Assembly (NCBI GenBank): GCA_016196625.1 | Contig: JACPXH010000013.1 | Location: forward strand, 4,516 to 68,515 | Source: Candidatus Parcubacteria bacterium | GTDB taxonomy: Bacteria; Patescibacteriota; Minisyncoccia; JACPXH01 | Direction: 5' to 3' | Length of the DNA: 64,000 nucleotides | Shown here: one piece after another, positions 13,811-63,807 of the stretch | Layout: the number at the start of each line of letters is the position of its first letter | How positions within the stretch are numbered: the first letter of the stretch is position 1 | Notes under the pieces: model-generated | Databases searched by the model: none | Told to the model about the DNA's origin: nothing | What the model saw: the letters and a program-made list of their open reading frames with translations, nothing else | Made by a program: the position numbers and the translations under genes

Positions 13811-13813
13811 GCC

Positions 13814-13993: not shown

Positions 13994-13997
13994 AGAT

Positions 13998-18282: not shown

Positions 18283-18314
18283 ACATATTATAATACGATC
18301 GTATTATAATATGT
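18283..18314. promoter_or_regulatory. 32-bp perfect palindrome ACATATTATAATACGATCGTATTATAATATGT overlapping the start codon of the PaaX-like regulator; putative auto-operator
   Basis: Perfect dyad read directly. Half-site ATTATAATACGA. Related sites at 18967, 21361, 37578 and 49594. Confidence 0.5.
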
Positions 18315-18921: not shown

Positions 18922-19003
18922 GCCGAGCAGATTCTCGATCTGGTTTCTGATTTTCTGTTTGCCAAATTATACTACGATCGTATTATAATGCGTAAACGTT
19001 TGG
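18907..19003. repeat. About 95-bp segment (3' tail of the PaaX-like gene plus downstream near-palindrome 18967-18990), duplicated at 37517-37616
   Basis: About 97% identity to 37517-37616 (copies differ at 2 positions; TTTATTTAATCTGTAAGCCGAGCAGATTCTCGATCTGGTTTCTGATTTTCTGTTTGCCAAATTATACTACGATCGTA[T/G]TATAATGCGTAA[A/G]CGTTT). The site ATTATACTACGATCGTATTATAAT is a 24-bp dyad with one mismatch. Confidence 0.6.
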
Positions 19004-21050: not shown

Positions 21051-21360
21051 TGTCAGTCCTCCGTTCGTCTGCGCGCGCCGTATGTGGCGCTACGGCTGCC
21101 GAGATTCCTCTGCGGCAACGAAGAACAGACTGGCTAGAAATCCCCTCTTCGCTGCCGCAGAAATGGCTTTGGTTCTGAAAACTTGTTTAGCGTACTATAC
21201 TCTTTACTGCATTTACTGTCAATAGGAAAGAGACGGGTTTTCAACCGGCTGTATGTATCGGACGATGAGGTCCTTCGCTTCTTGATAAGCTCGAGGCTCA
21301 GGATGACGCCTTGCGTCACTTCGTCATCCCTCGACGAGCTCGGGACTCCTCACATTTACG

Positions 21361-21386
21361 CATTATAATACGATCGTAGTATAATG
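21361..21386. promoter_or_regulatory. 26-bp near-perfect palindrome CATTATAATACGATCGTAGTATAATG (PaaX-like site family), solo copy
   Basis: One mismatch in the dyad. Lies about 95 bp beyond the 3' end of the giant gene. Confidence 0.45.
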
Positions 21387-21481
21387 TGGCAGACAAAAAA
21401 TTAGAACTAGAGACAGAATTTAAACTCTGTCTGCTTAGCAATGACGCTCCGTGCGGGAGGTGCTGTGAGGCAACTGCGCAA

Positions 21482-28593: not shown

Positions 28594-31020
28594 TTACCGC
28601 CCGGTCCCCTGCTCTGTGGGTGGAGCTGTGGTGAGCGCGGGCATTTGGGAAAGTCGGGTCCGAACTTCTTGTTCGACCGCCGCGCGGTCCCGGCCGTATA
28701 TTGAGCTCGACCACTGCCGAACTGCGTGTGCCGCCGCCGGATCCCCTTTGCGCGGCAGGTTGATCACAAAGTTAAAGGGCGAAGTGGTTTTGCCTTGAGA
28801 CATGAGCCGCGCGTAGGCGTTGAAGTTATCAAGGTTGATGAGATCAGATGCGGCAAAGGCCGGCGCAAACTGGGGTTCGATGGATTCGGCGTCTTCCACT
28901 CCCACCCGAAACGAAACCAAGGATCCCACGTTGCCGAAGACCGCGTTTTTGATTTCGTCCGTGAGTTGTTTGATGAATTGATGCGCGAGCGTGAGATTGA
29001 GCCGGTACTTGCGTGCTTCGGACAGGATTGTCGCAATGGACGGGGTCGCGAAGCTCTGGAATTCGTCCAAGTAGAGGTAAAAATCGGACCGCGCCTCCTC
29101 GGCTGCGTCGGTTCGGCTCAAAGCCGCCAAAAGCAGTTTGCCCACGAGAATCAGGCCAAGGAGGGAGCTGTTGAGTTCGCCCAGACGCCCTTTGGTGAGG
29201 TTAACGAGGAGAATCTTGCGTTCGTCCATCACTTGGCGAAAATTAAATGAGCTTTGCTCTTGGGCGATGATGGGGCGCATGATGTCGTTGGCAATGAACA
29301 GGTTCATCTTTGAAGTGATGTAGGGCACCATGTTCGCGAGCGCCGCTTCCCCGCCGGCTTTCTCCGCCTCCAGCTCCCAGAAATTCTTGATTACCATGTT
29401 CGTCGTGCGTGAGAGTTTCAACTTGCGAAACTCTTTATCCGCGAGCACCCGCGGGATTTCCAGGAGCGTATTGCCGGAGGCAGGATCTTCCATGACCAGC
29501 AGCACGGCGTTGCGCATGTATTGTTCAAACATGGGCCCGCCGGTAACTTTCAGATCGTAGAGCTTGTCAAAAATGGCGATGAGTTCATTCGCGATGAAGG
29601 TTTTCTGCTCGGGGTGCGCCGGGTCATATTCAAGCATGTTAAGCCCGAGGGGCCGTTCGATGTCGCCCGGGTTGAAATAGATTACTTCTTCCCGGCGGCT
29701 CGCGGGCACGAGTCCGAGGAGGTCGTCGGCCAAATCTCCGTGCGGGTCTATAAGCGCAAGGCCCTCTCCGGCCTCAATGTCTTGACGCGCGAGTTCTTTG
29801 ATGAGCGACGATTTGCCGGTTCCAGTTTGGCCTATAATATAGAGGTGTCTCCGGCGGTCTTCGCGCGCGATACGGATTACGGTTTCTCTGCCCCGAAAGA
29901 CGTTGCGCCCCAACATCAGACCTTCAAGGGGAAGGTTGAGCGGCGGCTCGGCCTGACGGGCTTTGAGCGCGTGCAGTTTGGGTGCTTCGAGCGAGGGGGT
30001 CGCAAAGTGATACATGCTACTCAACTCATCGGCACTCAAGATAAGCGCATCGCGTGAACGAAAGAGACGCCATGAAAACGCAAAGAGAAGCGACTCCAAC
30101 CGGCCGCCCTTGCGCCGCTTAAATGAGAGCGAGTTGGTCGGGGGAGCGCTCAAGGGGGCAAAGGCGGTTTCCATCTGTTCGAGCAGCGCTTTCGCCCGAG
30201 TCTCTTCTGCCGCCGAGGCCACCACCCGAACATTGGCTGCAAAGACGGGCGTGCGGGCCTTGCGCTCGATGGCCTCCACCGCTTCGGGGTCAACGGGTTC
30301 GTTCTTGCTTTCGCCGGGGCCTCGGGTCGAGTTTGCTTTGAGCTTTTGGGCTTGGGCCACGCTTTCGGCGCCCCAGCGTTTGGGAGCGGGTTGGAGCAGA
30401 ATTTGGATGGCCGCACCCTCCCCTTCTTTGGCAATTTTGCTTAAGGCCGTGGCAATCGCGCTTAAGGGATCCACTTCAAGCTCACGGAAGGTGCGCAGCG
30501 ACAGGCGGCTGTTTTTGACCTCAAGGATTGAGGCTTCGTGTCTGCCGTGGGGATTGAACAGGTTATAGTCCGGTACCGCCTCGATTACGGCTTCCGGGAA
30601 AAAGCCGTGGATGTGTTTTTCGAACGCTTCAGCCAGCCGCCTCGGGAAGGCCGCGAAAAACTGAATTTCCTCGCCCACATGGGGGACGGCCAGTTCAAAG
30701 GCAACCGTGGGCATCCCCCGGAGGATCGCCCGCCACCACTTCTCTTTTAGAAACGTCAGGCTCGCGTAGAACTGACTCATGACGGCGAGCCCCTCGCGCA
30801 TTCGTTCCACTGCCGATCGATCCGACTCCAGGGGACGGTTCGGAAGCGCAATCGCGAAGAGGGCGAGGTTCAGGGCGCGCGCGGTCTCCCCTCGGCGTCG
30901 GAGCGTAACTAAACCCCAAGCCGCCGCAGTGCCGCCCACCGTAAGGACGGCGAGGGTTATGAGGATGAGCCAGAGGAGGAAAGAGAGATCGAGGGGCACG
31001 GTCAAAAGTTCAAATGCCAA
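28594..31020 (-). CDS. Membrane-anchored VirB4/TraG/HerA-like P-loop NTPase (AAA_10/DUF87-type)
   Basis: Two N-terminal TM helices. Walker A GQTGTGKSS followed by LIDPHGDL, Walker B FYLYLDEFQ, then LTLAHQ. TTG start at 31018-31020 lies inside an AT-rich heptad leader. Confidence 0.55.
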   Translation of the reverse strand: MAFELLTVPLDLSFLLWLILITLAVLTVGGTAAAWGLVTLRRRGETARALNLALFAIALPNRPLESDRSAVERMREGLAVMSQFYASLTFLKEKWWRAILRGMPTVAFELAVPHVGEEIQFFAAFPRRLAEAFEKHIHGFFPEAVIEAVPDYNLFNPHGRHEASILEVKNSRLSLRTFRELEVDPLSAIATALSKIAKEGEGAAIQILLQPAPKRWGAESVAQAQKLKANSTRGPGESKNEPVDPEAVEAIERKARTPVFAANVRVVASAAEETRAKALLEQMETAFAPLSAPPTNSLSFKRRKGGRLESLLFAFSWRLFRSRDALILSADELSSMYHFATPSLEAPKLHALKARQAEPPLNLPLEGLMLGRNVFRGRETVIRIAREDRRRHLYIIGQTGTGKSSLIKELARQDIEAGEGLALIDPHGDLADDLLGLVPASRREEVIYFNPGDIERPLGLNMLEYDPAHPEQKTFIANELIAIFDKLYDLKVTGGPMFEQYMRNAVLLVMEDPASGNTLLEIPRVLADKEFRKLKLSRTTNMVIKNFWELEAEKAGGEAALANMVPYITSKMNLFIANDIMRPIIAQEQSSFNFRQVMDERKILLVNLTKGRLGELNSSLLGLILVGKLLLAALSRTDAAEEARSDFYLYLDEFQSFATPSIATILSEARKYRLNLTLAHQFIKQLTDEIKNAVFGNVGSLVSFRVGVEDAESIEPQFAPAFAASDLINLDNFNAYARLMSQGKTTSPFNFVINLPRKGDPAAAHAVRQWSSSIYGRDRAAVEQEVRTRLSQMPALTTAPPTEQGTGR

Positions 31021-31088
31021 AATCCAAATGCCAAATCAAACTTAAAGTTCAAAATCCAAAATCGCTTCGGCATTTGGGCTTTGGATTT
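31021..31088. promoter_or_regulatory. AT-rich heptad-repeat leader (units TTTGRMW) abutting the ATPase start
   Basis: Shares an about 55-nt block (AAATGCCGAAGCGATTTTGGATTTTGAACTTTAAGTTTGATTTG) with 33745-33821. Related repeats at 31488-31551, 49621-49675 and 60941-61124. Confidence 0.5.
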
Positions 31089-31487: not shown

Positions 31488-31551
31488 ATCTCGAAATGAC
31501 AAATGCCAAAATCCAAATGTCAAATGCAAAATCAAACAGCGCTACAGTATA

Positions 31552-31806: not shown

Positions 31807-31999
31807 GATTGCTTAGTCTAGCACAGTCCGGGGCCTCGACTTACTTTAATTTATCCACACGGCGGCATGCAGGAGCGTGCTAGACTGGAAGCGGAAAAAC
31901 TCCTTTTTGGATCGTACGGGATTGCTTCGCCCGCCTCCGCCAGTTGGCGGATGGCGGGCTCGCAATGACGGCCGACAGCGGCTCTCGCTGAACTCTATT

Positions 32000-33694
32000 A
32001 TGGATAAGCGCCAACGAACTTGGATTTTCCTTGGCATCATTCTTGTAGTTGCCATCTTTTTTCGCTTCTGGCAGTTTACCGAATTTCCTCCCGGGTTGTA
32101 TCCGGACGAGGCGGTCAATGGCGTAAATGGTCTCCAAGCGGTTGAGACCGGCAACTATCAAGTTTTCTACCCGGACAACAACGGCCGCGAGGGGCTGTGG
32201 ATGAACGTGCAGGGATTAGTCTCAAAGGCGCTCGGCCCTTCGCCCTGGGCTCTGCGGGTGCCCAGCATGGTGATAGGCGTGCTCACGGTTCTCGGCCTTT
32301 TCTTATTAGTGCGCGAGCTAGTCGGCGACGAGGTGGCTTTGGTTTCGGCAGCGCTGCTGGCGACTTCCTTTTGGCACACGGTGTTTTCCCGCATGGCCTT
32401 CCGGGCCATTCTATTGCCGTTCGTGCTTACCTATCTTTTCTACTTTTTGGTTCGGGGATTGAAACGCGGGCGCGGATCAGATTTTGTCGGAGCCGGTTTT
32501 TTCTTCGGGCTGGGTTTTCACACCTATATTTCTTACCGGATCGTGCCGCTGCTGCTGGTTGCGCTGTTCGGCGTACTCATTTGGTTAAAGCGGCGCAAGG
32601 TTTGGCAGCCAATATTCTGCGCGCCGTGTGCGGTTAGTCTTATGCTGATTGTGGGGCTTGTGGTGGCAACTCCCATGCTTCTTTATTTGATTCAGCACCC
32701 GGAAGATTGGAGCGGTCGGACCGGCGGCATTTCTGTCTGGAGCGCGCAAAGTCCTCTCAAGGCCGTTCTCATCTCCACGGCCGCAACATTAGGGCAGTTT
32801 AACGTGCTCGGGGATCGCAACTGGCGGCATAACTTCCCCGGCCGGCCGGAGCTGTTTTGGCCCGCCGGGATTATGATGCTGGTAGGGCTTGCGATAACGT
32901 TTCGGACAGCGTTCCGAATATTCCGCGCAAAGCCAGCCGCGCCACCCTCGGAGGAAACCGTTCGGCCATGCCACTCTAATATACTAGTATATGATAGTGG
33001 AAACGGCTGGCTCGTCATTTTCGGGGCGTGGCTCATGCTCGGATGGTTCTTTGCCTTGATGGTGCCGGCGATTCTCACGCGCGAAGGCCTGCCCCATGCG
33101 CTGCGCACCATCGGCACTATCCCGCCCGCGTACGCGTTTGCCGGGGTTGGCACGTGGCTCACGTGGAAGGCGTTGCGGCGCAAGGTTCTCGGTGGGCTCG
33201 AAGGATTTTTGGAACGCGATCCGAATCTGGAGTTTCTGCGATCCAGATTGAACCGTATTCGGCGGTGGTTCGGGGTGCTGCTCGCGACTTTTCTTCTGTG
33301 GGTGGCGGGCAGCGAAGGGGTTACGTACTTTGTGCGTTGGGCGCCCCACCCGCGCGTGGCCGACGCTTTTGCGGCTCACCAGACCGAGCTCGCCAACTAC
33401 ATCAACGCCGCGGAGCCCGACATTTCGATCTACGTGGTGGTTAACGCCCCCAGTCTCAACGTCAACGGCATCTCGCTCAACGCCCAACCCCTCGTGTATC
33501 TGAATCACGGCCGGCCCAACTTGTTTTTCGTAACTCCAGAGACCATCGGTTCGATCCCCCGCGATCTGCATCGGGCCGAGATTATCCTGCTCGATTCGGA
33601 TCGGCAGTTTCTGGCCCAACTCCAGCGTGAGCGTTATCCCCAAGGAAAGACCAAGGCAGTCTCGGGGACGATCGTGCCGTTGGTGATTCCGTAA
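32000..33694 (+). CDS. Glycosyltransferase family 39 (ArnT/PMT-like) polytopic membrane protein
   Basis: N-terminal loop motif GLYPDEAVNGVNG (DE motif) after the first TM, with many TM helices. ATG at 32000. Confidence 0.7.
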   Translation: MDKRQRTWIFLGIILVVAIFFRFWQFTEFPPGLYPDEAVNGVNGLQAVETGNYQVFYPDNNGREGLWMNVQGLVSKALGPSPWALRVPSMVIGVLTVLGLFLLVRELVGDEVALVSAALLATSFWHTVFSRMAFRAILLPFVLTYLFYFLVRGLKRGRGSDFVGAGFFFGLGFHTYISYRIVPLLLVALFGVLIWLKRRKVWQPIFCAPCAVSLMLIVGLVVATPMLLYLIQHPEDWSGRTGGISVWSAQSPLKAVLISTAATLGQFNVLGDRNWRHNFPGRPELFWPAGIMMLVGLAITFRTAFRIFRAKPAAPPSEETVRPCHSNILVYDSGNGWLVIFGAWLMLGWFFALMVPAILTREGLPHALRTIGTIPPAYAFAGVGTWLTWKALRRKVLGGLEGFLERDPNLEFLRSRLNRIRRWFGVLLATFLLWVAGSEGVTYFVRWAPHPRVADAFAAHQTELANYINAAEPDISIYVVVNAPSLNVNGISLNAQPLVYLNHGRPNLFFVTPETIGSIPRDLHRAEIILLDSDRQFLAQLQRERYPQGKTKAVSGTIVPLVIP

Positions 33695-33821
33695 GTTCAA
33701 AGTTCAAAGTTCAAATTTCAAAGCTCAAATGTCAAATCCAAAGCCCAAATGCCGAAGCGATTTTGGATTTTGAACTTTAAGTTTGATTTGAAATTTGGAT
33801 TTTGTCATTTGGATTTCAGGT
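33695..33821. repeat. AT-rich heptad repeats in palindromic arrangement ((GTTCAAA)3 TTTCAAA GCTCAAA TGTCAAA ... then the inverse TTTTGGATTTTGAACTTTAAGTTTGATTTG...)
   Basis: Tandem 7-mers read directly. The right half is a leader for the downstream GT39 gene. Confidence 0.6.
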
Positions 33822-35729: not shown

Positions 35730-35828
35730 GATTTATAAGACCTATAAGATTTATAGGTCTTAATGGGTCTCCGCTACGGCGGAAAAGTTTTGCGCCCCGC
35801 GCACAAAGTGCGCGGGGCGCCCCGTCTC

Positions 35829-36736: not shown

Positions 36737-36905
36737 TGCCCTCCTCCTTTCGCGCATCTCGCGCAGCATCACCACGCAAGTGCAGCGCTGGATATTGCGA
36801 ACCCGGTGTGGTTTTCGAGGAACACTCTTACTACTATGATACACCGCCTCAGCATTATGTCAATCTCAAATTGAAAAATGTCTTGGCTGGCGGCAAATTC
36901 TTTTA

Positions 36906-37022
36906 CCCGCCGTCGCAGAAAGCCACGGCCGTGAGGCCGTGGATGAATGCGTAAGCAGAGTCCTTCCGAAGCTCGAAGGACAAAGGAGGATGCTTTGGCG
37001 GGCGTAAGCCCGCGGAGCTTTA
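36906..37022. repeat. Cluster of REP-like hairpins (CCACGGCCgtgaGGCCGTGG; GCGGGCgtaaGCCCGCGGAGCTT)
   Basis: Same family as the elements at 10041-10117, here with the first unit inverted. Confidence 0.55.
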
Positions 37023-37099
37023 TAAAAAGTTAAGAGCCGCCGCGAAGCGATGACTCTGAAGGACGACTCTCTTGGGCGGTCGTCCGATTGCCCGAAGTC

Positions 37100-37522
37100 T
37101 CACGGGAGAGCCGCGAGGACCTTTTCCACCACCTTGCGATGGTTCGGAAAAAAATCCTGCTTGGCGAGGATGTCCCGGGGCTTGAACACCCCGATTTCCT
37201 CGCTCTCGTCTCCCTCGGACTTCATCTGCGGGAGGGCCGTGAGGTTTGCCCGAAAGATGGTGAGGATGTGGCTGCCCTTGTCCTCGGAGTGGACGACTGC
37301 GAGGTCATTCTCCGACAAGGACACACCAATCTCCTCTTCCAACTCCCGAATGGCGCAACCCCGGGCCGTTTCCGTTGCTTCGCCCCTACCGCCGGGCAAC
37401 TTCCAGAAAACTGGTGCCGGCTTTTTGGGGTCCCGAATGAGCGGGATGCCCTGGGGCGTGACGAGGAGAACTGCAACTGCGTGTCCTTTTTTTGGTGCTG
37501 TTTTCGAGAACGTAGATTTTAT
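37100..37522 (-). CDS. NUDIX hydrolase with no canonical start codon (possibly 5'-disrupted)
   Basis: Nudix box GGRGEATETARGCAIRELEEEIGV. The open frame extends upstream (..KGHAVAVLLVTPQGIPLIRDPKK..) to an in-frame stop at 37523-37525 with no ATG or GTG. The only listed start is the TTG at 37399, which falls inside the fold. Confidence 0.45.
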   Translation of the reverse strand: MKSTFSKTAPKKGHAVAVLLVTPQGIPLIRDPKKPAPVFWKLPGGRGEATETARGCAIRELEEEIGVSLSENDLAVVHSEDKGSHILTIFRANLTALPQMKSEGDESEEIGVFKPRDILAKQDFFPNHRKVVEKVLAALP

Positions 37523-37616
37523 TTAATCTGTAAGCCGAGCAGATTCTCGATCTGGTTTCTGATTTTCTGTTTGCCAAATTATACTACGATCGTAGTATAA
37601 TGCGTAAGCGTTTTGG
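37517..37616. repeat. Second copy of the 95-bp PaaX-gene-tail + palindrome segment (perfect 24-bp palindrome ATTATACTACGATCGTAGTATAAT at 37578-37601)
   Basis: Near-identical to 18907-19003. Abuts the 5' end of the NUDIX reading frame. Confidence 0.6.
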
Positions 37617-37745
37617 GGCCGTAAGATTTTATCCGTTTCTCAGAAAACCGTGGGCGTGAACCCACAGTTGAATGCGGAGCGGATATCATGAGTAAATATC
37701 AAAGGGCATGCCTTCGGAATGCTGCGGCGGATTCCGCCGAGGATA

Positions 37746-37772
37746 CCACGGGCGTAAGCCCGTGGAGCTTCA
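37746..37772. repeat. REP-like hairpin CCACGGGCgtaaGCCCGTGGAGCTTCA
   Basis: Family member. Confidence 0.5.
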
Positions 37773-37800
37773 CTTTATCGCCGGCCGAGGTTACTTTCTT

Positions 37801-38776: not shown

Positions 38777-39229
38777 ATGCCGACGCGGAGAGGACGAAGG
38801 GTACTCTGTTCCATTCAGCCGAGACAGGGAGCTGTTTCTACGGAGGCGTTCGAGCTTGTTCGCGAGGGGGCGGGCGAACTCTTGAACGCCCTCGGCATTG
38901 CTCCGCTGCGCAACGGTCGAGAGCGCGTGCACGCGGTTCTGTGTGACCCTGGCCGCACCATGGTGTTTGTCCACGTTTGGAACGTGGACGTGGGGGCGCT
39001 TCGACCGGCGGTGGTTGCCCAGAAACTGGAGGGCACGCCGTTCCAAGAGATATCCTCTTTGGACGGGGGATATTCTCGCCGCTTCAGCTGGCAGGCGGGG
39101 CCATGGACTTTGAAGTTCATCTTGTGGCCCTCGCTTGCACCCGACGACCTCAACTTCTCGCCGAAATACGATGCGCGTTGGGGCATCTTCTGGATCGGTC
39201 AGGAAGTGCCGGCCCCGGCCGCTCGCTAG
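38777..39229 (+). CDS. Hypothetical protein (150 aa)
   Basis: Strong SD AAGGAGGAGGA before the ATG. Confidence 0.45.
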   Translation: MPTRRGRRVLCSIQPRQGAVSTEAFELVREGAGELLNALGIAPLRNGRERVHAVLCDPGRTMVFVHVWNVDVGALRPAVVAQKLEGTPFQEISSLDGGYSRRFSWQAGPWTLKFILWPSLAPDDLNFSPKYDARWGIFWIGQEVPAPAAR

Positions 39230-40545
39230 GCTTCGGAGTTATGGGCCCTGCGCAGACCACGCGCCGGGCTCTTCTTTTTCGCAGTGCGCTTGCGCGGGAT
39301 TACACTGAAACCAAGGTAAGGCTGGAGCGCTTTTGGCATTGCCACTGACCCGTCTTTTTTCTGAAAGTTTTCTAAAATCGCAATGATGGCCCGCGAGGTG
39401 GCGATGGCGGTACCGTTCAAAGTGTGTACATAGCCTGTTTCACCGCTGGCTTTCCGATATTTGATGCCGAGACGCCGGGCCTGATAGTCGGTCGTATTCG
39501 AGGTTGAGGTAACCTCGCCCCAATCGTTTCGTCCGGGCATCCAGGCTTCAAGATCAAACTTTCGAGCCGCCTGGGCCCCCAAGTCCCCGGTACACATTTC
39601 CACCACGCGGTATGGGATGCCCAGTCCCTGCCAGAGCGCTTCTTCAAGCGCAAGCAACTCCGCGTGCAATTTGGGCGAATCTTCCGGTTTGATGTACACA
39701 AACATTTCCACCTTTGTGAATTGGTGCAGGCGATAGAGGCCCTTTGAGTACCGGCCGTAGCCGCCGGCCTCTTGCCGGAAACAGTGCGAGTAGCCGGCAT
39801 AACGTTTGGGCAGGGAGTCTTCGGGCAAGATTTCATCAGCATGGATGCCGGCCAGCGTAACTTCGGCGGTGGCAATCAAGCCAAGATTGGAATTTTCAAT
39901 AACGTACGTCTGCGCTTCCGGCCCCCGCGGCAGATAGCCGGTCCCAAGGTAGAACCGGTCGCGAGCAAGATCGGGGGTAAGCCAAAGCGCAAAGCCCTTT
40001 TTGGCAAGAAAATCGAGGGCATAGCGCACGAGCGCCAGTTCAAGTAGGATGCCTTCATTCTTGAGATAGCAGAAATCAGCGCCCGCAACTTTACTACCGG
40101 CCTCGAAGTCAAGAATACCGAGCGCGGTTCCGAGCTCAAGATGATCTTTCGGCTGGAAGAGGAACGTCGGTTTCTTCCCCACCTCGCGCAGCGCTTGGTT
40201 TTGCGATTCGTCTTTCCCGACCGGCACGGTTTCTTGGGGCAGGTTCGGTAAAGTAAGCAGTATCTCCTCCACCGCTTTGGCCGCGGCCGCAAGCCCTTTT
40301 TCTTTTTCTGCCAAGAGACCGCTCAAGCGTTTCGCTTCGGTAAGTAGCGTCTCGTCTTTCCCCAGCCGGCTGATTTCTGTGGAAACTTTGTTTTTGCCGT
40401 GTCGCAACTCTTCAACTTCCTTGATGAGCTGACGATGCCCGGCATCAGTTTTGAGAAATTTGTCGGTATCGAACGCAAAGCCTTTCTTTTTCAGGCCAGC
40501 TTTCACGTAATCTGGCTGTTTGCGGATAAGGTGGATGTCGAGCAT
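39226..40545 (-). CDS. serS: Seryl-tRNA synthetase
   Basis: N-terminal coiled-coil arm and class II core motifs (e.g. RYAGYSHCFRQEAG, GLYRLHQFTKVEMF). Confidence 0.9.
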   Translation of the reverse strand: MLDIHLIRKQPDYVKAGLKKKGFAFDTDKFLKTDAGHRQLIKEVEELRHGKNKVSTEISRLGKDETLLTEAKRLSGLLAEKEKGLAAAAKAVEEILLTLPNLPQETVPVGKDESQNQALREVGKKPTFLFQPKDHLELGTALGILDFEAGSKVAGADFCYLKNEGILLELALVRYALDFLAKKGFALWLTPDLARDRFYLGTGYLPRGPEAQTYVIENSNLGLIATAEVTLAGIHADEILPEDSLPKRYAGYSHCFRQEAGGYGRYSKGLYRLHQFTKVEMFVYIKPEDSPKLHAELLALEEALWQGLGIPYRVVEMCTGDLGAQAARKFDLEAWMPGRNDWGEVTSTSNTTDYQARRLGIKYRKASGETGYVHTLNGTAIATSRAIIAILENFQKKDGSVAMPKALQPYLGFSVIPRKRTAKKKSPARGLRRAHNSEA

Positions 40546-40599
40546 ACGTGAGGAATATAGAATCTCGAATTATGAATCACGAATAACGGCTTAAATTCT

Positions 40600-40728
40600 T
40601 ACCCAACGCACCAGAAGGCCATCGGCTCCTGCCGGTAGATGAATGGTTGGTGCGTAGGCCTTCGGTGCGGGGTTCCGCCCCGCCACCGAAGTACGAGGTG
40701 CCGCCGACTCCAGTCGGCGGGGCTCCAC
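40600..40728. repeat. Hairpin-rich repeat element, copy B (129 nt), in the serS upstream region
   Basis: Near-identical to 14006-14161, including the stop-codon-proximal end. Remains open in the DEAD-helicase frame. Confidence 0.6.
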
Positions 40729-40763
40729 TCCGCGATTTCATGGTTAGTCTTCGTGGTAATTCG

Positions 40764-40793
40764 CCATTCTAATGTATTAATACATTAGAATGG
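40764..40793. promoter_or_regulatory. 30-bp perfect palindrome CCATTCTAATGTATTAATACATTAGAATGG, third copy of the TrpR-like site
   Basis: Perfect dyad. Lies 14 nt after the NUDIX-HD gene stop and about 220 nt upstream of the serS start. Confidence 0.5.
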
Positions 40794-40806
40794 AAGGATG
40801 GCGTGT

Positions 40807-41808
40807 CTACAGACCGAGTTCGGGAGAGATGCTCCGCATCGCTTCAAGACTCAAGCGCGTTACCGCTTCAAGCGACAGGCCGATCATGTCAGGAGCTTTG
40901 GCAATGATATCGCGGTTGACCCCTTTCGCAAAAGACTTTTCTTTGAACTTTTTGAGCACCGACTCGACCGAAACGTCGGCCAGCTTCTTGGAGGGCTGCA
41001 CTAGCGCGGCGGCGGTAATGAGGCCCGTGAGTTCTTCTACACAAAAGAGTGTTTTTTCAAGCAGCGTCTCTGGCGCAATGCCGTGGTGCCAATTGTGAAC
41101 CTTGATCGCTTTTACAATGTGAGGCGCAAGCCCGGCTTCGGTGAGGATCCGTTCGGCCATGAGCGTGTGCTCGGGAAAATTATCCTTGGTTTTCTCCCAA
41201 TCTACATCATGCAAGAGTCCCGTGAGCGCCCATTCGTCGGCGTTTTCGCCAAAATGTTCGGCCAAACGCCTCATTACCGCCTCGGCCGCGAGGAGGTGTT
41301 TTTTGAGGTTGGGGTTTTGGATGTGTTGGTTAATGATGCTAATTGCTTGCGCTCGGTCCATATCAGCCGGTTTTCTGGTAAGCCGGAGGTACTCTTCGAC
41401 GCCCTTTAACCAGCCCCCGGTGAAGTACTGCTGCGGTCTGAGCGAAGAAAGTGGTACCCATAGAAACTCGGAATGCGTTGACGAGAGTCGCACCTCACCC
41501 TTCGTCCAGTGCGCGGCAAAGCCGATGGCAAAAATTCGGACAGGTTTATGGAGCGAGCGCTCCCGTCGTTCATGGCGCATGAATACAATTGCTTGACCGA
41601 GCGTGTATCGGATTGTGAGACCCAATTCCTCTCGAGCTTTTCGTTCGATGATTTTATTAAGCGGCGTCGCAAATTCATTCGTGCGGATTCTGCCACCCGG
41701 CAGGTCCCAATCTCCGAATACGTCCTTGATGATGAGGAGCGTGTTCTTCCGCCTGAGAAACATTTTCACCGCCACAAAATACAGGTCTTTAGCGGCAAGG
41801 TTCCTCAT
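40807..41808 (-). CDS. NUDIX hydrolase fused to an HD-domain phosphohydrolase
   Basis: N-terminal Nudix region (LPGGRIRTNEFATPLNKIIERKAREELGL). C-terminal HD signature (HDVDW ... HNWHH). Confidence 0.65.
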   Translation of the reverse strand: MRNLAAKDLYFVAVKMFLRRKNTLLIIKDVFGDWDLPGGRIRTNEFATPLNKIIERKAREELGLTIRYTLGQAIVFMRHERRERSLHKPVRIFAIGFAAHWTKGEVRLSSTHSEFLWVPLSSLRPQQYFTGGWLKGVEEYLRLTRKPADMDRAQAISIINQHIQNPNLKKHLLAAEAVMRRLAEHFGENADEWALTGLLHDVDWEKTKDNFPEHTLMAERILTEAGLAPHIVKAIKVHNWHHGIAPETLLEKTLFCVEELTGLITAAALVQPSKKLADVSVESVLKKFKEKSFAKGVNRDIIAKAPDMIGLSLEAVTRLSLEAMRSISPELGL

Positions 41809-43289
41809 TCCCTTGGTTTCATTAGCGGGAAAAGTACGGCCTCGCGCACCGATTTATCCATGAGTACAGCAAAGAGGCGCTCAGAGAACCCAAACCCAGC
41901 TGTCGGCGGCATGCCGTACTCTAAAGCCTCCAAGAAATCCTCATCCAGCATTTGCGCTTCCTTATCACCTGCCTCTCTTAATGCCATTTGGTCCTGAAAA
42001 CGTTTCCGCTGATCATCAGGGTCATTCAATTCGGAAAATCCCTTGCCCAATTCGGTTCCCGCTGCCACAACTTGTAATCTCAGTACTCTCCTCGAATCAT
42101 TCGGGTCACGTTTTGCTAATGGTTCCATTTCTACGGGTGGTCTAACGAGAAATCGTGGCTGAATCAACTTCGGGCGTATAACCTTCTTATAGAGCAAATC
42201 CCACCCCTTTGGAGAATCCGGATCAAGCCCGTATTTTATCAGAGCTTCCTGAACTACTTTTCGGGGCTCCCCCGGCCGAAAACCAAAATTTTCATTAAAC
42301 AAATCGTAAAATTCCACTTCCGACCAGTTTCCGGACCAATCAATTTCTTGATTTTGATAGGTGGCTTTCAGTGTGCCGAGAGTTTCTTTAATTACATATT
42401 GGTACATCTCCTGCACAAATTTCCTTAAATCTTCGTAATCAGCATAAGCCCAGTAAAATTCCATTTGCGTGTAATCCTGCAGGTGTTCCCGATCCATTCC
42501 CTCGTTGCGGAAAATCCGGCCAATCTCAAATACTTTTTCATAGCCGCCAACAATGAGCCGCTTCAAATGGAGCTCCGGCGAAATTCTCAAATATAAATCA
42601 ATATCGAGCGCGTTCAAGTGAGTTACGAAAGGCTCCGCGTCGGCACCGCCAGGAACCTGCTCCAAAACGGGGGTCTCCACTTCCAAAAATCCTTTTTGCA
42701 ATAAAAACTCGCGCGTCGCCTGCCAGAATTTTGCTTTTTTGCGGAAAAGTTCCCGCTCATTGGCGTTCACCACTAAATCAAGGTAGCGCCTGCGTAGGCG
42801 TTCCTCGATGTCGGTAAGTCCGTGCCATTTTTCGGGGAGCGGCCGGAGGGATTTGGTAAGCAGGCGAACTTCGCTTGTCGCCAGGGTCAGCTCACCGGTT
42901 TTGGTGGTGATGGCGGTACCAGTGGCCTCGGCGAAATCGCCGATGTCGAAAAGATCAACAAAATCTTTGACCGTCGGCTGCCGGAGGGTCTCGGGGTTAA
43001 GCAGCAGCTGCAGTTTGCCCGTGCCGTCTTCGAGATCGGCAAAGCAGATCTCACCGTGTTCGCGGACACTCCGGATTCGGCCCGCAATGGTGAGCTTGAC
43101 TTTCCCCGATTCAAATTCCGCAAATCCGGCGCGCACCGCCGCAATGGTATGACTGCGGTCCGTGTGCGCAGGATACGGATCAACGCCGGCTTGGCGCAGG
43201 CGCTGCAGTTTTTCCAGCCTGACTTTTCGCAGTTCTTCAAGGCTTGGCATGCCCTTATTGTAACGGAAACAGCCCCCGTGCGACAACAC
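41805..43289 (-). CDS. lysS: Lysyl-tRNA synthetase (class II)
   Basis: OB anticodon-binding N-terminus and class II motifs (FRNEGMDREHLQDYTQMEFY ... GFGFSERLFAVLM). Confidence 0.9.
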   Translation of the reverse strand: MLSHGGCFRYNKGMPSLEELRKVRLEKLQRLRQAGVDPYPAHTDRSHTIAAVRAGFAEFESGKVKLTIAGRIRSVREHGEICFADLEDGTGKLQLLLNPETLRQPTVKDFVDLFDIGDFAEATGTAITTKTGELTLATSEVRLLTKSLRPLPEKWHGLTDIEERLRRRYLDLVVNANERELFRKKAKFWQATREFLLQKGFLEVETPVLEQVPGGADAEPFVTHLNALDIDLYLRISPELHLKRLIVGGYEKVFEIGRIFRNEGMDREHLQDYTQMEFYWAYADYEDLRKFVQEMYQYVIKETLGTLKATYQNQEIDWSGNWSEVEFYDLFNENFGFRPGEPRKVVQEALIKYGLDPDSPKGWDLLYKKVIRPKLIQPRFLVRPPVEMEPLAKRDPNDSRRVLRLQVVAAGTELGKGFSELNDPDDQRKRFQDQMALREAGDKEAQMLDEDFLEALEYGMPPTAGFGFSERLFAVLMDKSVREAVLFPLMKPRE

Positions 43290-49593: not shown

Positions 49594-49615
49594 TTATACT
49601 ACGATCGTAGTATAA
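49594..49615. promoter_or_regulatory. 22-bp perfect palindrome TTATACTACGATCGTAGTATAA (PaaX-like site family), about 160 bp upstream of mreB
   Basis: Perfect dyad. The downstream flank TATGTAAGCGTT resembles the flanks of the copies at 18990 and 37601. Confidence 0.45.
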
Positions 49616-52633: not shown

Positions 52634-53176
52634 TCACCAATCGCACGCCGGCGGGCCGCTGCAGAGCATCAACGACCAGTTGGGACGCAGAGGATCGTAG
52701 AACGGATCGGTGTCGGACCACGTGCCTTCCGGCGAGCAGTTGGCCAGCAGTTTGTAATTCGTCTCGTCCGATTTATAGAGGTAGGCGGACTTGGTGCCTA
52801 CCAGACACCGCAGCGGCACGTACGGTGATTCGCCGCCTCGGGGATCGCGAGGCAGGGCCGAGACGTAGGTGGGGGTAAGTCCCGGGATCCAGTTGCCGCT
52901 GTTGTTGGAATAGAGATCTCCCGGCTCGGAAGAATACCAGTTGCTGCTGGTCGAGGGGTAGCGGTTGTTACGGTCGTAGTAGAGTTCAAGCGCGGTCTGG
53001 AGCTGGCGCATCGTGCTGCGCCGCGCGCTGTCGCGGGCGTTGATGCGCACGGTGCTCAAGGCAACGAGGATGATGCTGGCCACAAGCCCGGCGATCGCCA
53101 CGACCACTAAGAGTTCAATCATGGTAAACCCCGTTTGAGCGGCTGCTCCGCGACCGGCTCGCGTAAATAACGCCAT
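52634..53176 (-). CDS. Type IV pilin/pseudopilin with a prepilin-type N-terminal methylation motif
   Basis: Leader ...AQTG then FTMIELLVVVAIAGLVASIILVA (G/F cleavage site, Glu+5). The long listed N-terminal extension was discarded. Confidence 0.65.
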   Translation of the reverse strand: MALFTRAGRGAAAQTGFTMIELLVVVAIAGLVASIILVALSTVRINARDSARRSTMRQLQTALELYYDRNNRYPSTSSNWYSSEPGDLYSNNSGNWIPGLTPTYVSALPRDPRGGESPYVPLRCLVGTKSAYLYKSDETNYKLLANCSPEGTWSDTDPFYDPLRPNWSLMLCSGPPACDW

Positions 53177-53335
53177 CTTATTGGCTACCCGCCGTCGCAG
53201 AGGGCCATGGGCTCTGTCCGTGGGTGAATGCGCGGTTGGTATTCCGGGTGGGGTTGAGGGGGGTATATTCCTTGAGGCTGTGGCGGATGACGCTGCAGCC
53301 CGCTTGGATTCGCCCGAAAGGCGAATAGCGGGCTG

Positions 53336-53361
53336 CCACGGGCTCCGCCCGTGGAGCTTCA
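53336..53361. repeat. REP-like hairpin CCACGGGctccgCCCGTGGAGCTTCA
   Basis: Family member. Confidence 0.5.
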
Positions 53362-53433
53362 CTTCGGTGGGCATCGTCGTGAGGAGCTGGGTAAATCCGC
53401 GTTCGCCTCGGCTGGGGGAAATGCGGGTCATGG

Positions 53434-59932: not shown

Positions 59933-60964
59933 CTATGAGCGCCTCAGCATGATGCTGCGTTTATAGATGTCGAGGTGCTCGAGCGCCACTCCGGTGCCGC
60001 GCGCCACGCACAAAAGCGGATCTTTGGCGATCGTCGCCGGCACGCTGGTCGCTTCGGAAATGAACGTATCAATGTTGCGAAGCAATGCGCCTCCGCCTGA
60101 AAGCACCATGCCTCTATCCATAATGTCGGCCGCAAGTTCCGGCGGAGTTTCTTGAAGCACTTTCTTGACCGTCTGGATGATCTCTCGAAGTTGATCCGTC
60201 ATCGCCGCGGTAACCTCGTTCGTCGAGATTTCAACGATTTTGGGCAGGCCTTGGGCCAAATCCCGGCCCCGGACTTCAAGCCACTCTTGCTCTTTGACCG
60301 GGGTGGCCGAGCCGATCGCCATTTTAATCTCTTCAGCCGTGCGCTCGCCGATAACAAGTCCTTTCTTTTTCTTTACCTCTTCCATGATGGCTTGGTCTAT
60401 CTTGTCTCCGCCCACCCGCGCCGAAGCCGAAGCCACAATGCCGCCGAGCGAAATAACCGCGACTTCAGTGGTGCCTCCGCCGATATCCACGATCATGTGT
60501 CCGGCCGGAGTGTTGACCGGTATGCCGGCGCCGATTGCGGCCACGATAGGTTCTTTCACGATGTAGGTAGCTCGCGCTCCGGCTTGCGTTGCCGCATCAA
60601 CCACTGCGCGCCGCTCGGTTGAAGTAATCCCGGCCGGTACCGCCACCATGACTTCCGGCCTAAACAGCCGCAAACGCCCGCCAGCTTTGTTGATGAGATA
60701 ACGGAGCATTGCTTCGGTTACGCGGTAGTCGGCAATTACGCCGTCTCGGAGGGGCTTCGCTGCGATAATGCCAGCCGGAGTGCGACCCAGCATGTTTTTG
60801 GCCTCGAGCCCCACGGCCAGCACTCGGTTGTCGTCAACCGAGATCGCGACAATTGAGGGTTCATTGATGACCACGCCGCGACCCGGCACGTAGACAAGCG
60901 TGTTGGCTGTTCCGAGGTCAATGCCGAGGCGGCGGGAAAACATGGACTGAAATCCAAATTTCAA
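59933..60964 (-). CDS. Second MreB/Mbl-like actin homolog
   Basis: GIDLGTANTLVYVPGRGVV... Paralog of the 48379-49437 gene at about 60% identity by eye. TTG start lies inside a heptad repeat. Confidence 0.8.
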   Translation of the reverse strand: MKFGFQSMFSRRLGIDLGTANTLVYVPGRGVVINEPSIVAISVDDNRVLAVGLEAKNMLGRTPAGIIAAKPLRDGVIADYRVTEAMLRYLINKAGGRLRLFRPEVMVAVPAGITSTERRAVVDAATQAGARATYIVKEPIVAAIGAGIPVNTPAGHMIVDIGGGTTEVAVISLGGIVASASARVGGDKIDQAIMEEVKKKKGLVIGERTAEEIKMAIGSATPVKEQEWLEVRGRDLAQGLPKIVEISTNEVTAAMTDQLREIIQTVKKVLQETPPELAADIMDRGMVLSGGGALLRNIDTFISEATSVPATIAKDPLLCVARGTGVALEHLDIYKRSIMLRRS

Positions 60965-61124
60965 AGCTCAAATTTCAAATCAAGTTCAAAATGACGCCGC
61001 GCGTCATCCTGAGCGCAGCGAAGGATCTCGAGATCCCTCGGTCGCTCCGCTCCCTCGGGATGACAACCGAGTTGTCACTTTGAGCTTTGGATTTAATTTG
61101 TCATTTGGATTTTGACATTAGACA
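60965..61124. repeat. AT-rich heptad leader interrupted by an about 75-bp GC-rich inverted-repeat-bounded insert (60996-61070: GTCATCC...GGATCTCGAGATCC...GGATGAC)
   Basis: Heptads TTTCAAA/CTCAAAT on both flanks. Internal palindrome GGATCTCGAGATCC and terminal inverted repeats GTCATCC/GGATGAC. Confidence 0.5.
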
Positions 61125-62399
61125 TTACACTTCTAACCGCTGGATATCTGCGCCAACAGCCTGTAAACGTTCTTCCAGTCGCTCGTAGCCCCGATCCAAG
61201 TGCTCAATGTCTTTGATGATTGACTGTCCTTGCGCCACCAAAGCCGCAATCACAAGTACCATGCCCGAACGGATATCAAAACTGGTAATTTCGCGGCCAG
61301 TCAGCGCCGTGGGGCCAACCACCATGGCGCGATGCGGGTCAAGAACCGTGGCGTTCGCGCCCAGACGCTGAAGCTCTTCAATGTAGCGCAGGCGCCCTTC
61401 ATACATCCACTCATGCAGGAGTGTGGCGCCGTCAGCTTGAGTCGCCAGAACCGCAAACGGCGGCAGATGATCCGAGCCGAGTTTCGGATAGAGCCCCACC
61501 TGAAGTTTTACCGCACGGTAGGGGCCCCGGTGGGTTAATATCCGAAGCACGCTCTCCTTTTTCCCGCTTTCTACTCGATACCGAACATCCATCGCTCGCA
61601 GAGCCGCCAACACGCTATCGAGACGTTCATCCAAAATTGGCCCCACCGTTACGGAGCTGCGGGTCGCGGCCGCCAACACCGCGAATGCGCTTACTTCGAG
61701 TTCATCGGGTTCAAGGCGGCAGCGAAAGCCGCGCAAAGAGCGCGCCGGTCTGAGGCGAATAAACGGCGTGCCGACTCCCTCCAGCTTGACCCCCATCTGC
61801 CCGAGAACTCCGCAGAGCGCCTGGACGTGAGGTTCCATGGCCGCCAAACGTATTTCACTGCTGCCATCGGCCAAGGCCGCCGCAAGCAGTGCGTTCTCTG
61901 TGCCAGTTACACTGGTTTCCGTCAACACCACGCGACCGCCGGAGAGCCGCGACTTACTCGAAATCTTCATCTCGCTGCCCTCCGAAACTCGCGCCCCGAG
62001 TGCCTGAAATGCGTCCAGATGCACGTGGACGGGTCGCGGCCCGATCAAATCGCCACCCGGGTACGGCATCCGAACATTTCCACACCGAGCGAGCAGCGCA
62101 CCGGCAATGACAATGCTGCCTCTAAGCCGGCCGACCAATTCGGCCCTCAAACCAGCCGGATCAACCGATTTGGCCTCAACCTCCACGGCATCTTCTGTCA
62201 GCCAGCGCACCTTCGCACCAACCCCCGCCATAATCTCAAGCATGCGGCGCACATCGGAGATGCGCGGCAGATTGGTAATCCGGCAGGCGGATTTCGTGAG
62301 CAGTGTTGCTGCCAGCACCGGGAAGGCGGCGTTTTTGGAACCCTGCACCCGGATTCGCCCGACCAGAGGCTTGGCGCCTTGAATGCGGTAGCTGGGCAT
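61125..62399 (-). CDS. murA: UDP-N-acetylglucosamine 1-carboxyvinyltransferase
   Basis: EPSP-synthase-fold pattern (e.g. GGDLIGPRPVHVHLDAF). 424 aa. Confidence 0.85.
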   Translation of the reverse strand: MPSYRIQGAKPLVGRIRVQGSKNAAFPVLAATLLTKSACRITNLPRISDVRRMLEIMAGVGAKVRWLTEDAVEVEAKSVDPAGLRAELVGRLRGSIVIAGALLARCGNVRMPYPGGDLIGPRPVHVHLDAFQALGARVSEGSEMKISSKSRLSGGRVVLTETSVTGTENALLAAALADGSSEIRLAAMEPHVQALCGVLGQMGVKLEGVGTPFIRLRPARSLRGFRCRLEPDELEVSAFAVLAAATRSSVTVGPILDERLDSVLAALRAMDVRYRVESGKKESVLRILTHRGPYRAVKLQVGLYPKLGSDHLPPFAVLATQADGATLLHEWMYEGRLRYIEELQRLGANATVLDPHRAMVVGPTALTGREITSFDIRSGMVLVIAALVAQGQSIIKDIEHLDRGYERLEERLQAVGADIQRLEV

Positions 62400-62468: not shown

Positions 62469-63725
62469 ATGAAGCTTGCCACACGCCGGTTTCTCTTTTG
62501 GCTCTCAATTGGCTTTTTTGTCGTGTTGGCACCCCTAGTTATCGGCTACGCTATCGGCTATCGGTTTGATTTTTCCGAGGGCGGCTTGGTGCGCACCGGC
62601 GCGCTTTTCGTGGAGGCGGAGCCGAAGAGGGTAGAAATCATCATTGATGGCAAACCGACCAAGCGCACGGGGACTATAATCACCAATTCAACTTTCGTGC
62701 GTGATCTTGCTCCCGGGCGCCACCGCGTGCGGCTTGAAAAAGAAAGCTACCAGCCATGGGAGAAAGAACTCGAAATCCGCCCCGCGGTCGTGACCGAAGT
62801 GCGAGGCGCGCGTCTCTGGCCGGCCGGGCGCGCGCCGGAAAATGTCGCGGTCCTCGGCCAGATTGACCCCGGGACGCTAAGACCATCGCCTGACGGTCGC
62901 GCGCTAGTTTGGGCGAGCACTTCCGGTCGAGTGCGAACGTGGCTTAAAAAAGACCTGCCTGATGGCCAAGTCGGTATCCTTGACTTTGCCACTCTCTTCG
63001 GGCTCAACAGCCGGAGCGCGGCAACTTTTGCTAGTGCCGCGACTGTTGATTGGTCTGCGGACTCGCAGTATCTCGTGGTGCGCCGAGGTGCGGACTGGTG
63101 GCGCTTGAGCCTGGATATCCGACGCGTCGAACGGCTGCCCCGACTTAACGGTCCGGGGTTGGTGCTTACCCCAGACACAGCGCTCACGATTGACGAACTC
63201 GGAATCCTGAACGCGTTCAGCCTACCCAACCAGAACATTGAAGCCATTGCGACGGCGGCGATAAATCCGATCCCGACCCCGGCCGATCGGCTCATCGCGC
63301 TCGACCGCGACCACGTGCTACTCCTCGATCACACCGGCACGTTACGCTGGTTCAACCCGAAAAGTCAGCTCTTCGAAGGGCTGGCCACCCGCGTGCGCGA
63401 CTCGGTTTTTTCGCCGGATCGCACAAAAATTCTTTGGCGGACCGCCACAGAGCTGTGGGTGCGCTCGCTTACCCCCGAAGGGCAGAGCGAGCTGGTTACG
63501 CGCTTATCAAGCCCGCTTGCGCAAGCGCTCTGGGCGGATCGGCAAAGCGCCCACATACTTTTTAGCACGGGCGATGCGGTGAAGGCGATCGAGTTGGACG
63601 CTCGCAGCGGCCGCAACAGCGCCGACCTTATATCGGTCAATGCTCCGACTGTCTTTCTGGGTTCAGGGGGGGAAAGTCTTTTGATTATTACTGCAGGGTC
63701 GCTGAAACGACTTTCGCTCCGGTGA
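62469..63725 (+). CDS. Membrane-anchored PEGA-domain protein with a C-terminal beta-rich domain
   Basis: N-terminal TM then a PEGA pattern (IIIDGKPTKRTGTII...LAPGRHRVRLEKESYQPWEKELEI). Confidence 0.55.
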   Translation: MKLATRRFLFWLSIGFFVVLAPLVIGYAIGYRFDFSEGGLVRTGALFVEAEPKRVEIIIDGKPTKRTGTIITNSTFVRDLAPGRHRVRLEKESYQPWEKELEIRPAVVTEVRGARLWPAGRAPENVAVLGQIDPGTLRPSPDGRALVWASTSGRVRTWLKKDLPDGQVGILDFATLFGLNSRSAATFASAATVDWSADSQYLVVRRGADWWRLSLDIRRVERLPRLNGPGLVLTPDTALTIDELGILNAFSLPNQNIEAIATAAINPIPTPADRLIALDRDHVLLLDHTGTLRWFNPKSQLFEGLATRVRDSVFSPDRTKILWRTATELWVRSLTPEGQSELVTRLSSPLAQALWADRQSAHILFSTGDAVKAIELDARSGRNSADLISVNAPTVFLGSGGESLLIITAGSLKRLSLR

Positions 63726-63768
63726 AGCTCCACGGGCAGAGCCCGTGGCCCTCGGCGACGGCGGGTAG
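63723..63768. repeat. REP-like element TGAAGCTCCACGGGCagaGCCCGTGGCCCTCGGCGACGGCGGGTAG
   Basis: Near-identical to 10041-10086. Confidence 0.55.
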
Positions 63769-63807
63769 ACGCCAAGAGCGCCCGGTGCCTGAAGCGCCGG
63801 CCGCTCT

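Follow-up and report, generated by a model that had tools for sequence, protein, structure and literature searches.

A solo copy of the predicted palindromic site of a TrpR-fold regulator in the lysS-serS operon of a Parcubacteria genome

Escherichia coli TrpR acts at a few palindromic operators per genome (trpR, trpEDCBA and aroH), which overlap promoters and include that of its own gene. Second operators located downstream of a promoter or within a transcription unit, such as lac O2, gal OI, the PurR site in purB and the CcpA cre sites in ORFs, work by looping or by blocking polymerase. Genes are also accompanied by palindromes of another kind, as REP elements with the RAYT gene and the Rickettsia palindromic elements are found in tens to hundreds of copies, and RAYT is an HUH Y1 transposase. 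CPR bacteria are generally reported to lack most amino-acid biosynthesis and cannot be cultured alone, and to our knowledge almost nothing is known about transcriptional regulation in them; a literature search on TrpR-like regulators or palindromic operators of CPR bacteria (Patescibacteria) returned nothing relevant. Within the TrpR family, HisR of the Firmicutes (YerC/YecD family) recognizes lineage-specific 20-bp palindromic motifs; it is often autoregulated, and such a site stands before about half of the hisR genes (PMC9413887).

Here we describe a perfect palindrome located between a NUDIX-HD gene and serS in a 64-kb stretch of a MAG of an uncultured Candidatus Parcubacteria bacterium, hereafter the window. 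A preliminary description, made from the sequence, regarded it as the third copy of a site that flanks a TrpR-like regulator gene elsewhere in the window, and proposed a small regulon connecting serS and the NUDIX-HD gene with an amino-acid-sensing regulator. The coordinates of the features are collected in Table 1.

Table 1. Features of the window that are discussed in the text
Feature	Position	Strand	Remarks
Palindrome copy 3 (solo), perfect, 30 bp	40764-40793		CCATTCTAATGTATTAATACATTAGAATGG; 24-bp core at 40767-40790
Palindrome copy 1, perfect, 32 bp	1986-2017		core 1990-2013 ends 8 nt before the regulator ATG
Palindrome copy 2, perfect, 26 bp	2504-2529		core 2505-2528; starts 24 nt past the regulator stop codon; between convergent genes
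TrpR-fold DNA-binding protein, 152 aa	2022-2480	+	PF01371; CPR-type subfamily with helical C-terminal extension of ~50 aa
lysS	41805-43289	-	first gene of the conserved lysS-(x)-serS unit
NUDIX + HD fusion gene	40807-41808	-	
serS	39226-40545	-	
Repeat element B	40599-40728		GC-rich, multi-hairpin; second copy 14005-14161
AT-rich motif GATTCATAATTC	40567-40578	-	with -10-like CATAAT; 22-33 nt before the serS ATG
def	1436-1951		
127-aa membrane-protein gene	2651-3034		convergent with the regulator gene
fmt	3150-4154		
Regulator gene with PaaX_M/Cas2-like domain	18337-18921	+	bracketed by the second palindrome family
Second palindrome family, copies	18283-18314, 18963-18990, 21356-21399, 37578-37601, 49594-49615		
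96-nt block	18906-19001 and 37518-37613		98% identical
PMT_2 glycosyltransferase ORF	31877-33694	+	
Related 7+10+7 palindrome	32971-32998		CCACTCTAATATACTAGTATATGATAGTGG; in frame inside the PMT_2 ORF
83-nt inverted repeats	31006-31088 and 33734-33816		94% complementary
Units related to the 83-nt inverted repeats	31491-31539 and 60946-61126		
Further AT-rich perfect palindromes	12550-12571, 35736-35762		ATACAACAACTAGTTGTTGTAT; TAAGACCTATAAGATTTATAGGTCTTA; intergenic
GC-rich hairpin repeats, several families	10040-10131, 36901-37023, 37740-37786, 53176-53375, 63722-63777		intergenic

Copies of the palindrome and their symmetry

Copy 3, when its sequence was read directly, proved to consist of two arms of 15 nt each without a loop. 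It shares the 24-bp core TTCTAATGTATTAATACATTAGAA with copies 1 and 2, and a search of the window allowing up to three mismatches returned exactly these three cores; the core did not occur in 100 dinucleotide-preserving shuffles of the window, where approximately 0 were expected. Copy 3 is identical to copy 2 over 28 bp (2502-2529), and as a DNA hairpin it has a dG of -11.2 kcal/mol (z = -8.5). The direct reading and the core search bear out the earlier description of a 30-bp perfect palindrome with the same core as the two copies beside the regulator. Copy 1 has an AT-rich upstream flank, which copy 3 lacks. The regulator and both flanking copies were confirmed base for base by an independent assembly of the same organism (L043), which derives from sequencing run SRR12113417. 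In that 3.8-kb contig (positions 1-34) the break lies 4 nt into the 32-bp upstream palindrome and 4 nt before the 24-bp core, as expected for a repeat. Copy 3 is most likely a third binding site for a small TrpR-type DNA-binding protein, and copy 1 is presumed to be the autoregulatory operator of the regulator gene.

The two-fold symmetry does not stop at the core. For 22 distinct AATGTAT-type sites, it runs past the shared 24 bp into bases that are site-specific and often GC-rich, as in CGCCCCCA...TGGGGGCG, CACCA...TGGTG and TACCG...CGGTA, and in the window CCA...TGG and AACT...AGTT. The mean symmetric extension was 3.4 bp, compared with 0.5 bp when left and right flanks were re-paired among sites as a null (permutation p<1e-5). 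Strain variants of one site show a symmetric double change (TCTA..TAGA versus TCTG..CAGA), and two copies in L010 also differ by symmetric changes. Such site-specific symmetric extensions are a new feature of these palindromes. They are not required by a dimeric protein, and copying, hairpin or template-switch processes fit them, which leaves as options selection for a hairpin or cruciform, insertion at pre-existing symmetric targets, and correction by template switching. Template-switch "quasipalindrome correction" is a known mutational mechanism that keeps and extends perfect palindromes. Because perfect palindromes of 24-40 bp cannot arise through point mutation, the solo copies have to be copied from existing ones.

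The TrpR-fold regulator and the bracketing of its gene

The protein encoded between copies 1 and 2 scored 33.7 bits against Trp_repressor of Pfam (PF01371, cut-off 27). Its AlphaFold (AF2) model, built on 24 homologues with a pLDDT of 77, has the TrpR fold in residues 1-100, followed by a long helix (92-132) and a short helix (140-151). The best Foldseek matches of the model were E. coli TrpR (1trr) and the YerC-like 3kor, 3g1c and 3frw, with a probability of 1.0, and the target-normalised TM against TrpR/YerC structures was 0.65-0.84. The protein is thus TrpR-like, as had been proposed, by both the Pfam score and the modelled structure. An orthologue of YerC/HisR is ruled out by the score against the YerC/YecD (HisR) equivalog TIGR02531 of NCBIfam, which was 24.4 bits and below the cut-off of 42.2. 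The all-helical protein has no catalytic domain, and there is no second TrpR-like gene in the 64-kb window. The family comprises 1638 clusters (50% identity, E<=1e-10), with a length of 140-155 aa in nearly all of the best 150 matches of these 1638 clusters, and no relatives were found in viral contigs. In the window, the palindrome-bracketed gene and the convergent membrane-protein gene lie between def and fmt (1436-4154), which are usual neighbors in bacteria and are split here.

We compared nine loci of the family (the window, L001, L003, L007, L009, L010, L018, L041 and L042), which span Parcubacteria, Sungbacteria and Microgenomates/Levybacteria-type genomes. The regulator gene was flanked by two palindrome copies in all nine. 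The upstream core ends 3-32 nt before the regulator ATG, and the downstream copy begins 1-50 nt past its stop codon (153 nt in L018) and is kept whatever the orientation of the neighboring gene. The palindrome is identical or nearly identical within a genome and different between genomes; besides the core of the window, we found CTACAATGTAT(CG/TA)ATACATTGTAG in L001 and L018, CTACTAATGAATCGATTCATTAGTAG in L010, TTATTATATACTAGTATACAATAA in L003, and ACTCTAATAATAC(A/G)TATCATTAGAGT in L007, L009 and L042, of which L041 has a TATATA-centred variant. The frame (T)CTAAT-N10-ATTAG(A) is common to all cores. At up to 40 bp overall, of which 24 bp form the core, these sites exceed the known TrpR-family motifs, which measure approximately 18-20 bp. 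In a low-GC organism (L026), the gene of a short YerC-like protein has a very similar palindrome just upstream.

The position of the upstream copy relative to promoter elements is informative in several of these loci. L007, L041 and L042 have a perfect TTGACA immediately left of the palindrome and TATCAT or TATATT inside its right half, with a spacing of 16-17 nt, and L009 has the same layout with a weaker -35 (TTTACT). In the four Microgenomates-type loci, the upstream copy thus covers the promoter from its spacer through the -10 to the start region, with 9-12 nt between the -10 and the ATG, a layout that indicates a putative autorepressed promoter and a leaderless or nearly leaderless mRNA. 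A scan of window copies 1 and 3 gave no sigma-70-like promoter, and the lone match of the terminator scan near the regulator was the copy 1 palindrome itself. Bracketing by genome-specific palindromes, together with the promoter overlap in relatives, leads to the reading that we consider best, in which the palindrome is very probably the cognate operator of the TrpR-fold protein and serves in its autorepression. The tie between palindrome and TrpR-like protein that the preliminary description had drawn from the window holds in 9/9 family loci. What is new here is a CPR-specific TrpR subfamily with a C-terminal extension, very long perfect palindromes and an invariant bracketing of the gene.

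L007 and L042 share a ybaB-prs-recR...cysS neighborhood and have nearly the same palindrome. The regulator cassette stands before recR in one of them and after recR in the other, and in L042 the downstream palindrome copy is followed by an operon whose last gene is cysS.

The PaaX_M/Cas2-like-domain regulator gene of the window is likewise enclosed by AT-rich palindromes, which belong to a second family (ATTATAATACGATCGTATTATAAT) and carry TATAAT at each outer edge. Three copies of this family lie beyond the bracket, one of them before a minus-strand NUDIX gene, and the half-site variants TATAATACGA and TATACTACGA assort independently among copies. The 96-nt block consists of the last codons and the 3' flank of the PaaX-like gene plus the downstream palindrome, and its duplicate lies before the NUDIX gene; palindrome-containing segments are thus copied as blocks. 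In L009 (13100-14230), a PaaX-like gene (13252-13995) is flanked by inverted motif copies, GGTATACCAAAGTTG upstream and CAACTTTGGTATACC downstream. Because these unrelated regulators are also bracketed, it may be a general feature of CPR genomes that regulator genes lie between their own sites.

A palindrome of the related 7+10+7 type is located in the PMT_2 glycosyltransferase ORF. The sole homologue found for this glycosyltransferase (32% identity) aligns up to and beyond the palindrome, whose encoded residues fall exactly in a 14-aa gap of that homologue; this suggests an in-frame insertion of a palindromic element. The same gene is bracketed by the 83-nt inverted repeats, which are composed of A-rich CAAAT-like units. 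With the additional palindromes and hairpin repeats of Table 1, the genome of the window is unusually rich in short structured repeats.

The lysS-serS spacer and solo sites in other genomes

Along the minus strand, 13 nt separate the NUDIX-HD stop codon from the palindrome, and a further 218 nt separate the palindrome from the serS ATG, in agreement with the 14 and about 220 nt given previously. The adjoining hairpin-rich repeat element B also turned out to be real. It is 94-97% identical to its second copy, which carries a 27-nt insertion, and it fills most of the NUDIX-HD/serS spacer. Both copies of element B are located just upstream of minus-strand starts, one of serS and the other of a 59-aa ORF with a weak, sub-threshold DUF7128 match. 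When the spacer was folded as RNA, the z score was -4.4 and the palindrome hairpin was present in both the MFE and the centroid structures. A one-mismatch copy of the AT-rich motif upstream of serS lies before the minus-strand gene 4536-5201. As a weak lead, this motif, located downstream of the palindrome, is a candidate for a proximal promoter element of serS, and its -10-like sequence could drive serS independently of the palindrome.

The Rfam search of the whole window at gathering thresholds gave tRNA-Gln as the single hit, with no T-box, riboswitch or leader, and the region 40400-40900 at E<=10 gave two spurious eukaryotic small-RNA hits (miRNA and snoRNA) and again no T-box. The idea of a serS leader is thus not matched by any T-box or other known aaRS leader RNA in Rfam. 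In the related loci, Rfam returned spurious hairpin matches alone, and an RNase P-like string suspected in L018 was not confirmed by it. A+T make up 73% of the palindrome stem, and GGCGAATT or AAGGATGG comes after it; an intrinsic terminator was rejected, since there is no GC-rich stem with a T-run and the scan of 40450-40900 gave 0 terminator-like sites.

The closest SerS proteins in the protein collection are only 65-69% identical, with none above 69%, and the three nearest loci that were fetched (67-69% SerS identity) were used for comparison. Their unit is greA-lysS-serS with nothing, a CTP-transferase-like gene or a NUDIX gene between lysS and serS, and the genes are separated by 0-5 nt or overlap. 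Spacer, palindrome and element B are all absent from the lysS-serS unit of these three relatives. Because there is no intergenic room in them, the 260-nt spacer of the window, containing the palindrome and element B, is lineage-specific, and copy 3 is an insertion particular to this lineage, in a lysS-(x)-serS operon that otherwise has no gaps. Beside copy 3, no regulator remnants and no homology beyond the 28-bp palindrome were found. Copy 3 looks like a recent insertion in this operon and not like an ancestral control region of serS.

These comparisons do not favor the regulon proposed in the preliminary description. The motif is missing from the orthologous serS loci of the three relatives, so that the association with serS is without conservation, and nothing suggests regulation of the NUDIX-HD gene, since the site lies downstream of that gene. 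Absence of the motif at serS in relatives is the outcome that the preliminary description had itself named as refuting it, to the extent that the available relatives can decide this. Nor do the comparisons favor amino-acid sensing by the regulator, whose YerC/YecD score lies under the cut-off and whose solo sites in other genomes adjoin unrelated genes. The link of the palindrome to serS is weak, and the Ser/NUDIX amino-acid regulon remains a putative grouping that calls for caution, the association being lineage-specific and unproven. Over the nine loci and L012, a tentative Ser/Cys theme was noted, with serS in the window, sufS in L012, a class-V aminotransferase in L003 and the cysS operon after the L042 regulator.

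Solo sites are also present in other genomes, as seen in a scan of GTDB genomes that covered genomes other than that of the window. A GC-rich MAG (including L012) that has the core of the window contains four exact-pattern sites in its draft genome. One is downstream of murG and ahead of an adenylosuccinate-lyase-like gene, another lies where sufD meets sufS and overlaps the sufD stop codon (L012), a third comes after gatA, and the fourth is in an unannotated contig. In this MAG, the start codons of sufS and of a small ORF each follow a solo copy at a distance of 10 nt. The genes beside solo sites elsewhere (adenylosuccinate-lyase-like, sufS, small membrane ORF) are unrelated. In a Sungbacteria draft genome, none of the four exact-pattern sites is more than 5.6 kb away from the regulator, and three of them lie between convergent genes; copy 2 of the window and the downstream copy of L041 also face convergent genes. 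At such positions there is no obvious target for a promoter operator.

Possible role of copy 3 and comparison with known systems

The mechanism that we favor, with a probability of roughly 0.55 for the whole, is that copy 3 is an inserted site of the TrpR-fold repressor and that its occupation reduces transcription into serS. Copy 3 would be a solo copy of the genome-specific recognition site of the repressor encoded between copies 1 and 2, and the bound repressor would limit the transcription entering serS, either as a roadblock against read-through from lysS/NUDIX-HD or by repression of a weak promoter that has the palindrome's outer edge as its -10 (TAGAAT). The conserved copy that follows the regulator gene would probably be an auxiliary operator, acting by looping or by insulation from neighboring transcription. 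Binding of the repressor to copy 3 and the direction of the effect on serS are predicted in this mechanism, and it is plausible that copy 3 is an extra operator (roadblock or weak promoter) of a large uncharacterised CPR regulator family. Against an operator role at copy 3, all copies within a genome are identical or nearly so and their symmetric flanks are site-specific. On the same side stand the negative sigma-70 scan at copies 1 and 3, the missing AT-rich flank of copy 3, the -10-like motif nearer to serS, the lack of conservation at serS, and the unrelated or convergent genes beside sites elsewhere.

Alternatively, copy 3 may belong to a short palindromic element that is dispersed around the genome, either neutrally or selfishly, much as REP or Rickettsia palindromic elements are, and that the TrpR-like protein binds with no role at serS; we regard this as possible, if doubtful. 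The NUDIX-HD/serS spacer is lineage-specific, similarity among copies ends exactly at the palindrome with no regulator remnants nearby, and a perfect palindrome of this length must be copied. Solo sites lie at tight operon junctions, even over a stop codon in L012, the related palindrome is in frame in the glycosyltransferase ORF opposite the 14-aa gap of the homologue, the symmetric extensions are site-specific, and the position of the regulator is not syntenic, even between L007 and L042. However, copies are very few (3 in 64 kb here, and two other draft genomes with 4 exact-pattern matches apiece), no transposase-like enzyme is associated, target-site duplications were not seen, and all copies are perfect although neutral copies should decay. 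An all-helical TrpR fold and three copies in 64 kb also set the locus apart from a REP/RAYT system proper. An extended form of this idea, which we think unlikely, is that the CPR-wide TrpR-fold proteins of about 150 aa (at least 1,600 clusters) constitute a self-contained "binder plus palindrome" module. The gene would always have its own palindrome on both sides. To the same low degree of confidence, the palindrome would be inserted by copying, as a single unit, at operon junctions and now and then in frame within ORFs, and it would evolve in concert in each genome while staying symmetric, as a REP/RAYT-like pair with a non-catalytic HTH. Equally conjectural is palindrome-based gene insulation, in which protein-bound palindromes shield genes in genomes with almost no intergenic space; the like bracketing of the unrelated PaaX-type regulator would then make this a design principle of the whole lineage.

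The remaining explanations assign the function to RNA or to recombination. As a transcribed RNA hairpin, the palindrome might for instance direct processing, stabilize transcripts or terminate them in a non-canonical way, both where the lysS/NUDIX-HD message ends and on either end of the regulator message. Such a role would account for the location of every site shortly 3' of the stop codon of an upstream gene, for stems lengthened by site-specific, often GC-rich pairs with one compensatory allele pair, and for the hairpin in the predicted spacer RNA. It is nevertheless quite improbable, because no U-tract follows the stem and the terminator scan is empty at copy 3, the core co-varies with a DNA-binding protein, and the upstream copy overlaps the -35/-10 in Microgenomates-type loci so that part of it is not transcribed. 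In addition, most sites are symmetric even in the part that would form the loop (TTAA, TCGA, CTAG), a symmetry needed by dimer-bound DNA and not by RNA hairpins. That the palindromes are att- or dif-like recombination sites, by which a site-regulator-site cassette excises and reinserts and of which copy 3 is an unoccupied landing site, we hold to be very improbable. The flanking sites are identical and in direct orientation wherever they are asymmetric (L007, L009, L042), solo sites exist elsewhere, the regulator is placed differently in the otherwise similar neighborhoods of L007 and L042, and the cassette splits the usually adjacent def and fmt in the window. On the other hand, the cassette has no linked recombinase, directionality is not provided by fully symmetric sites, active direct repeats would delete the regulator, and promoter overlap explains the upstream copy more simply. 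A by-eye comparison with the dif consensus (Xer/dif, 11-6-11) revealed no convincing XerC/D arms in these fully symmetric sites, which occur in multiple copies per genome. The analogies with dif/Xer and parS were set aside, as no recombinase or ParB is associated and the sites are symmetric, multiple and tightly tied to the TrpR-like gene. An amino-acid-responsive serS leader, meaning a serine- or tRNA-sensing control region that couples serS and NUDIX-HD, is scarcely credible. The site is upstream of serS beside a strongly structured element, and regulators of the TrpR family sense amino acids (PMC9413887), but neither T-box nor any other Rfam family matches, element B is dispersed and also precedes an unrelated small gene, and the NUDIX-HD gene is upstream of the site. 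The relatives have no leader at all, and the absence of the spacer from them largely refutes this explanation.

A large uncharacterised TrpR-fold family with a predicted DNA site forms a directly testable regulator-operator pair. If the solo copies are functional, essential genes such as serS and sufS would come under a regulator, in a reduced genome, through the insertion of an operator that already exists; if they lack a function, what spreads in compact genomes is a palindromic element of very small size.

Compared with E. coli TrpR and its trp operators, the CPR protein has the same fold (Foldseek probability 1.0 to 1trr, 1tro and 2oz9), and, as predicted from sequence, the CPR system resembles it in a palindromic operator, which in Microgenomates-type loci overlaps the promoter, in probable autoregulation and in the small number of sites per genome. 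The CPR protein differs from TrpR in being approximately 50 aa longer, with an extra long helix, and its gene always has a second copy of the site just past the stop codon. The site itself has 24-40 bp of perfect symmetry with outer CTAAT half-sites 16 bp apart, whereas TrpR sites are approximately 18-20 bp. With HisR, the system shares a TrpR-family protein and genome-specific palindromes, but no his genes are near the CPR regulator, the motif differs from cacTTTA-N6-TAAAgtg, and no such bracketing has been described for HisR. In common with lac O2, gal OI, PurR/purB and the CcpA cre sites, there is a putative second operator that lies past the promoter or within the transcription unit; unlike in these systems, the second CPR operator lies past the stop codon of the regulator itself, and looping or a roadblock would be its presumed mode of action. 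A gene flanked by its cognate genome-specific palindrome, with further solo copies and one related palindrome in frame, resembles REP/RAYT and the Rickettsia palindromic elements. In contrast to RAYT, however, the CPR protein is a non-catalytic HTH protein, and its elements of 24-40 bp are present in 3-4 copies.
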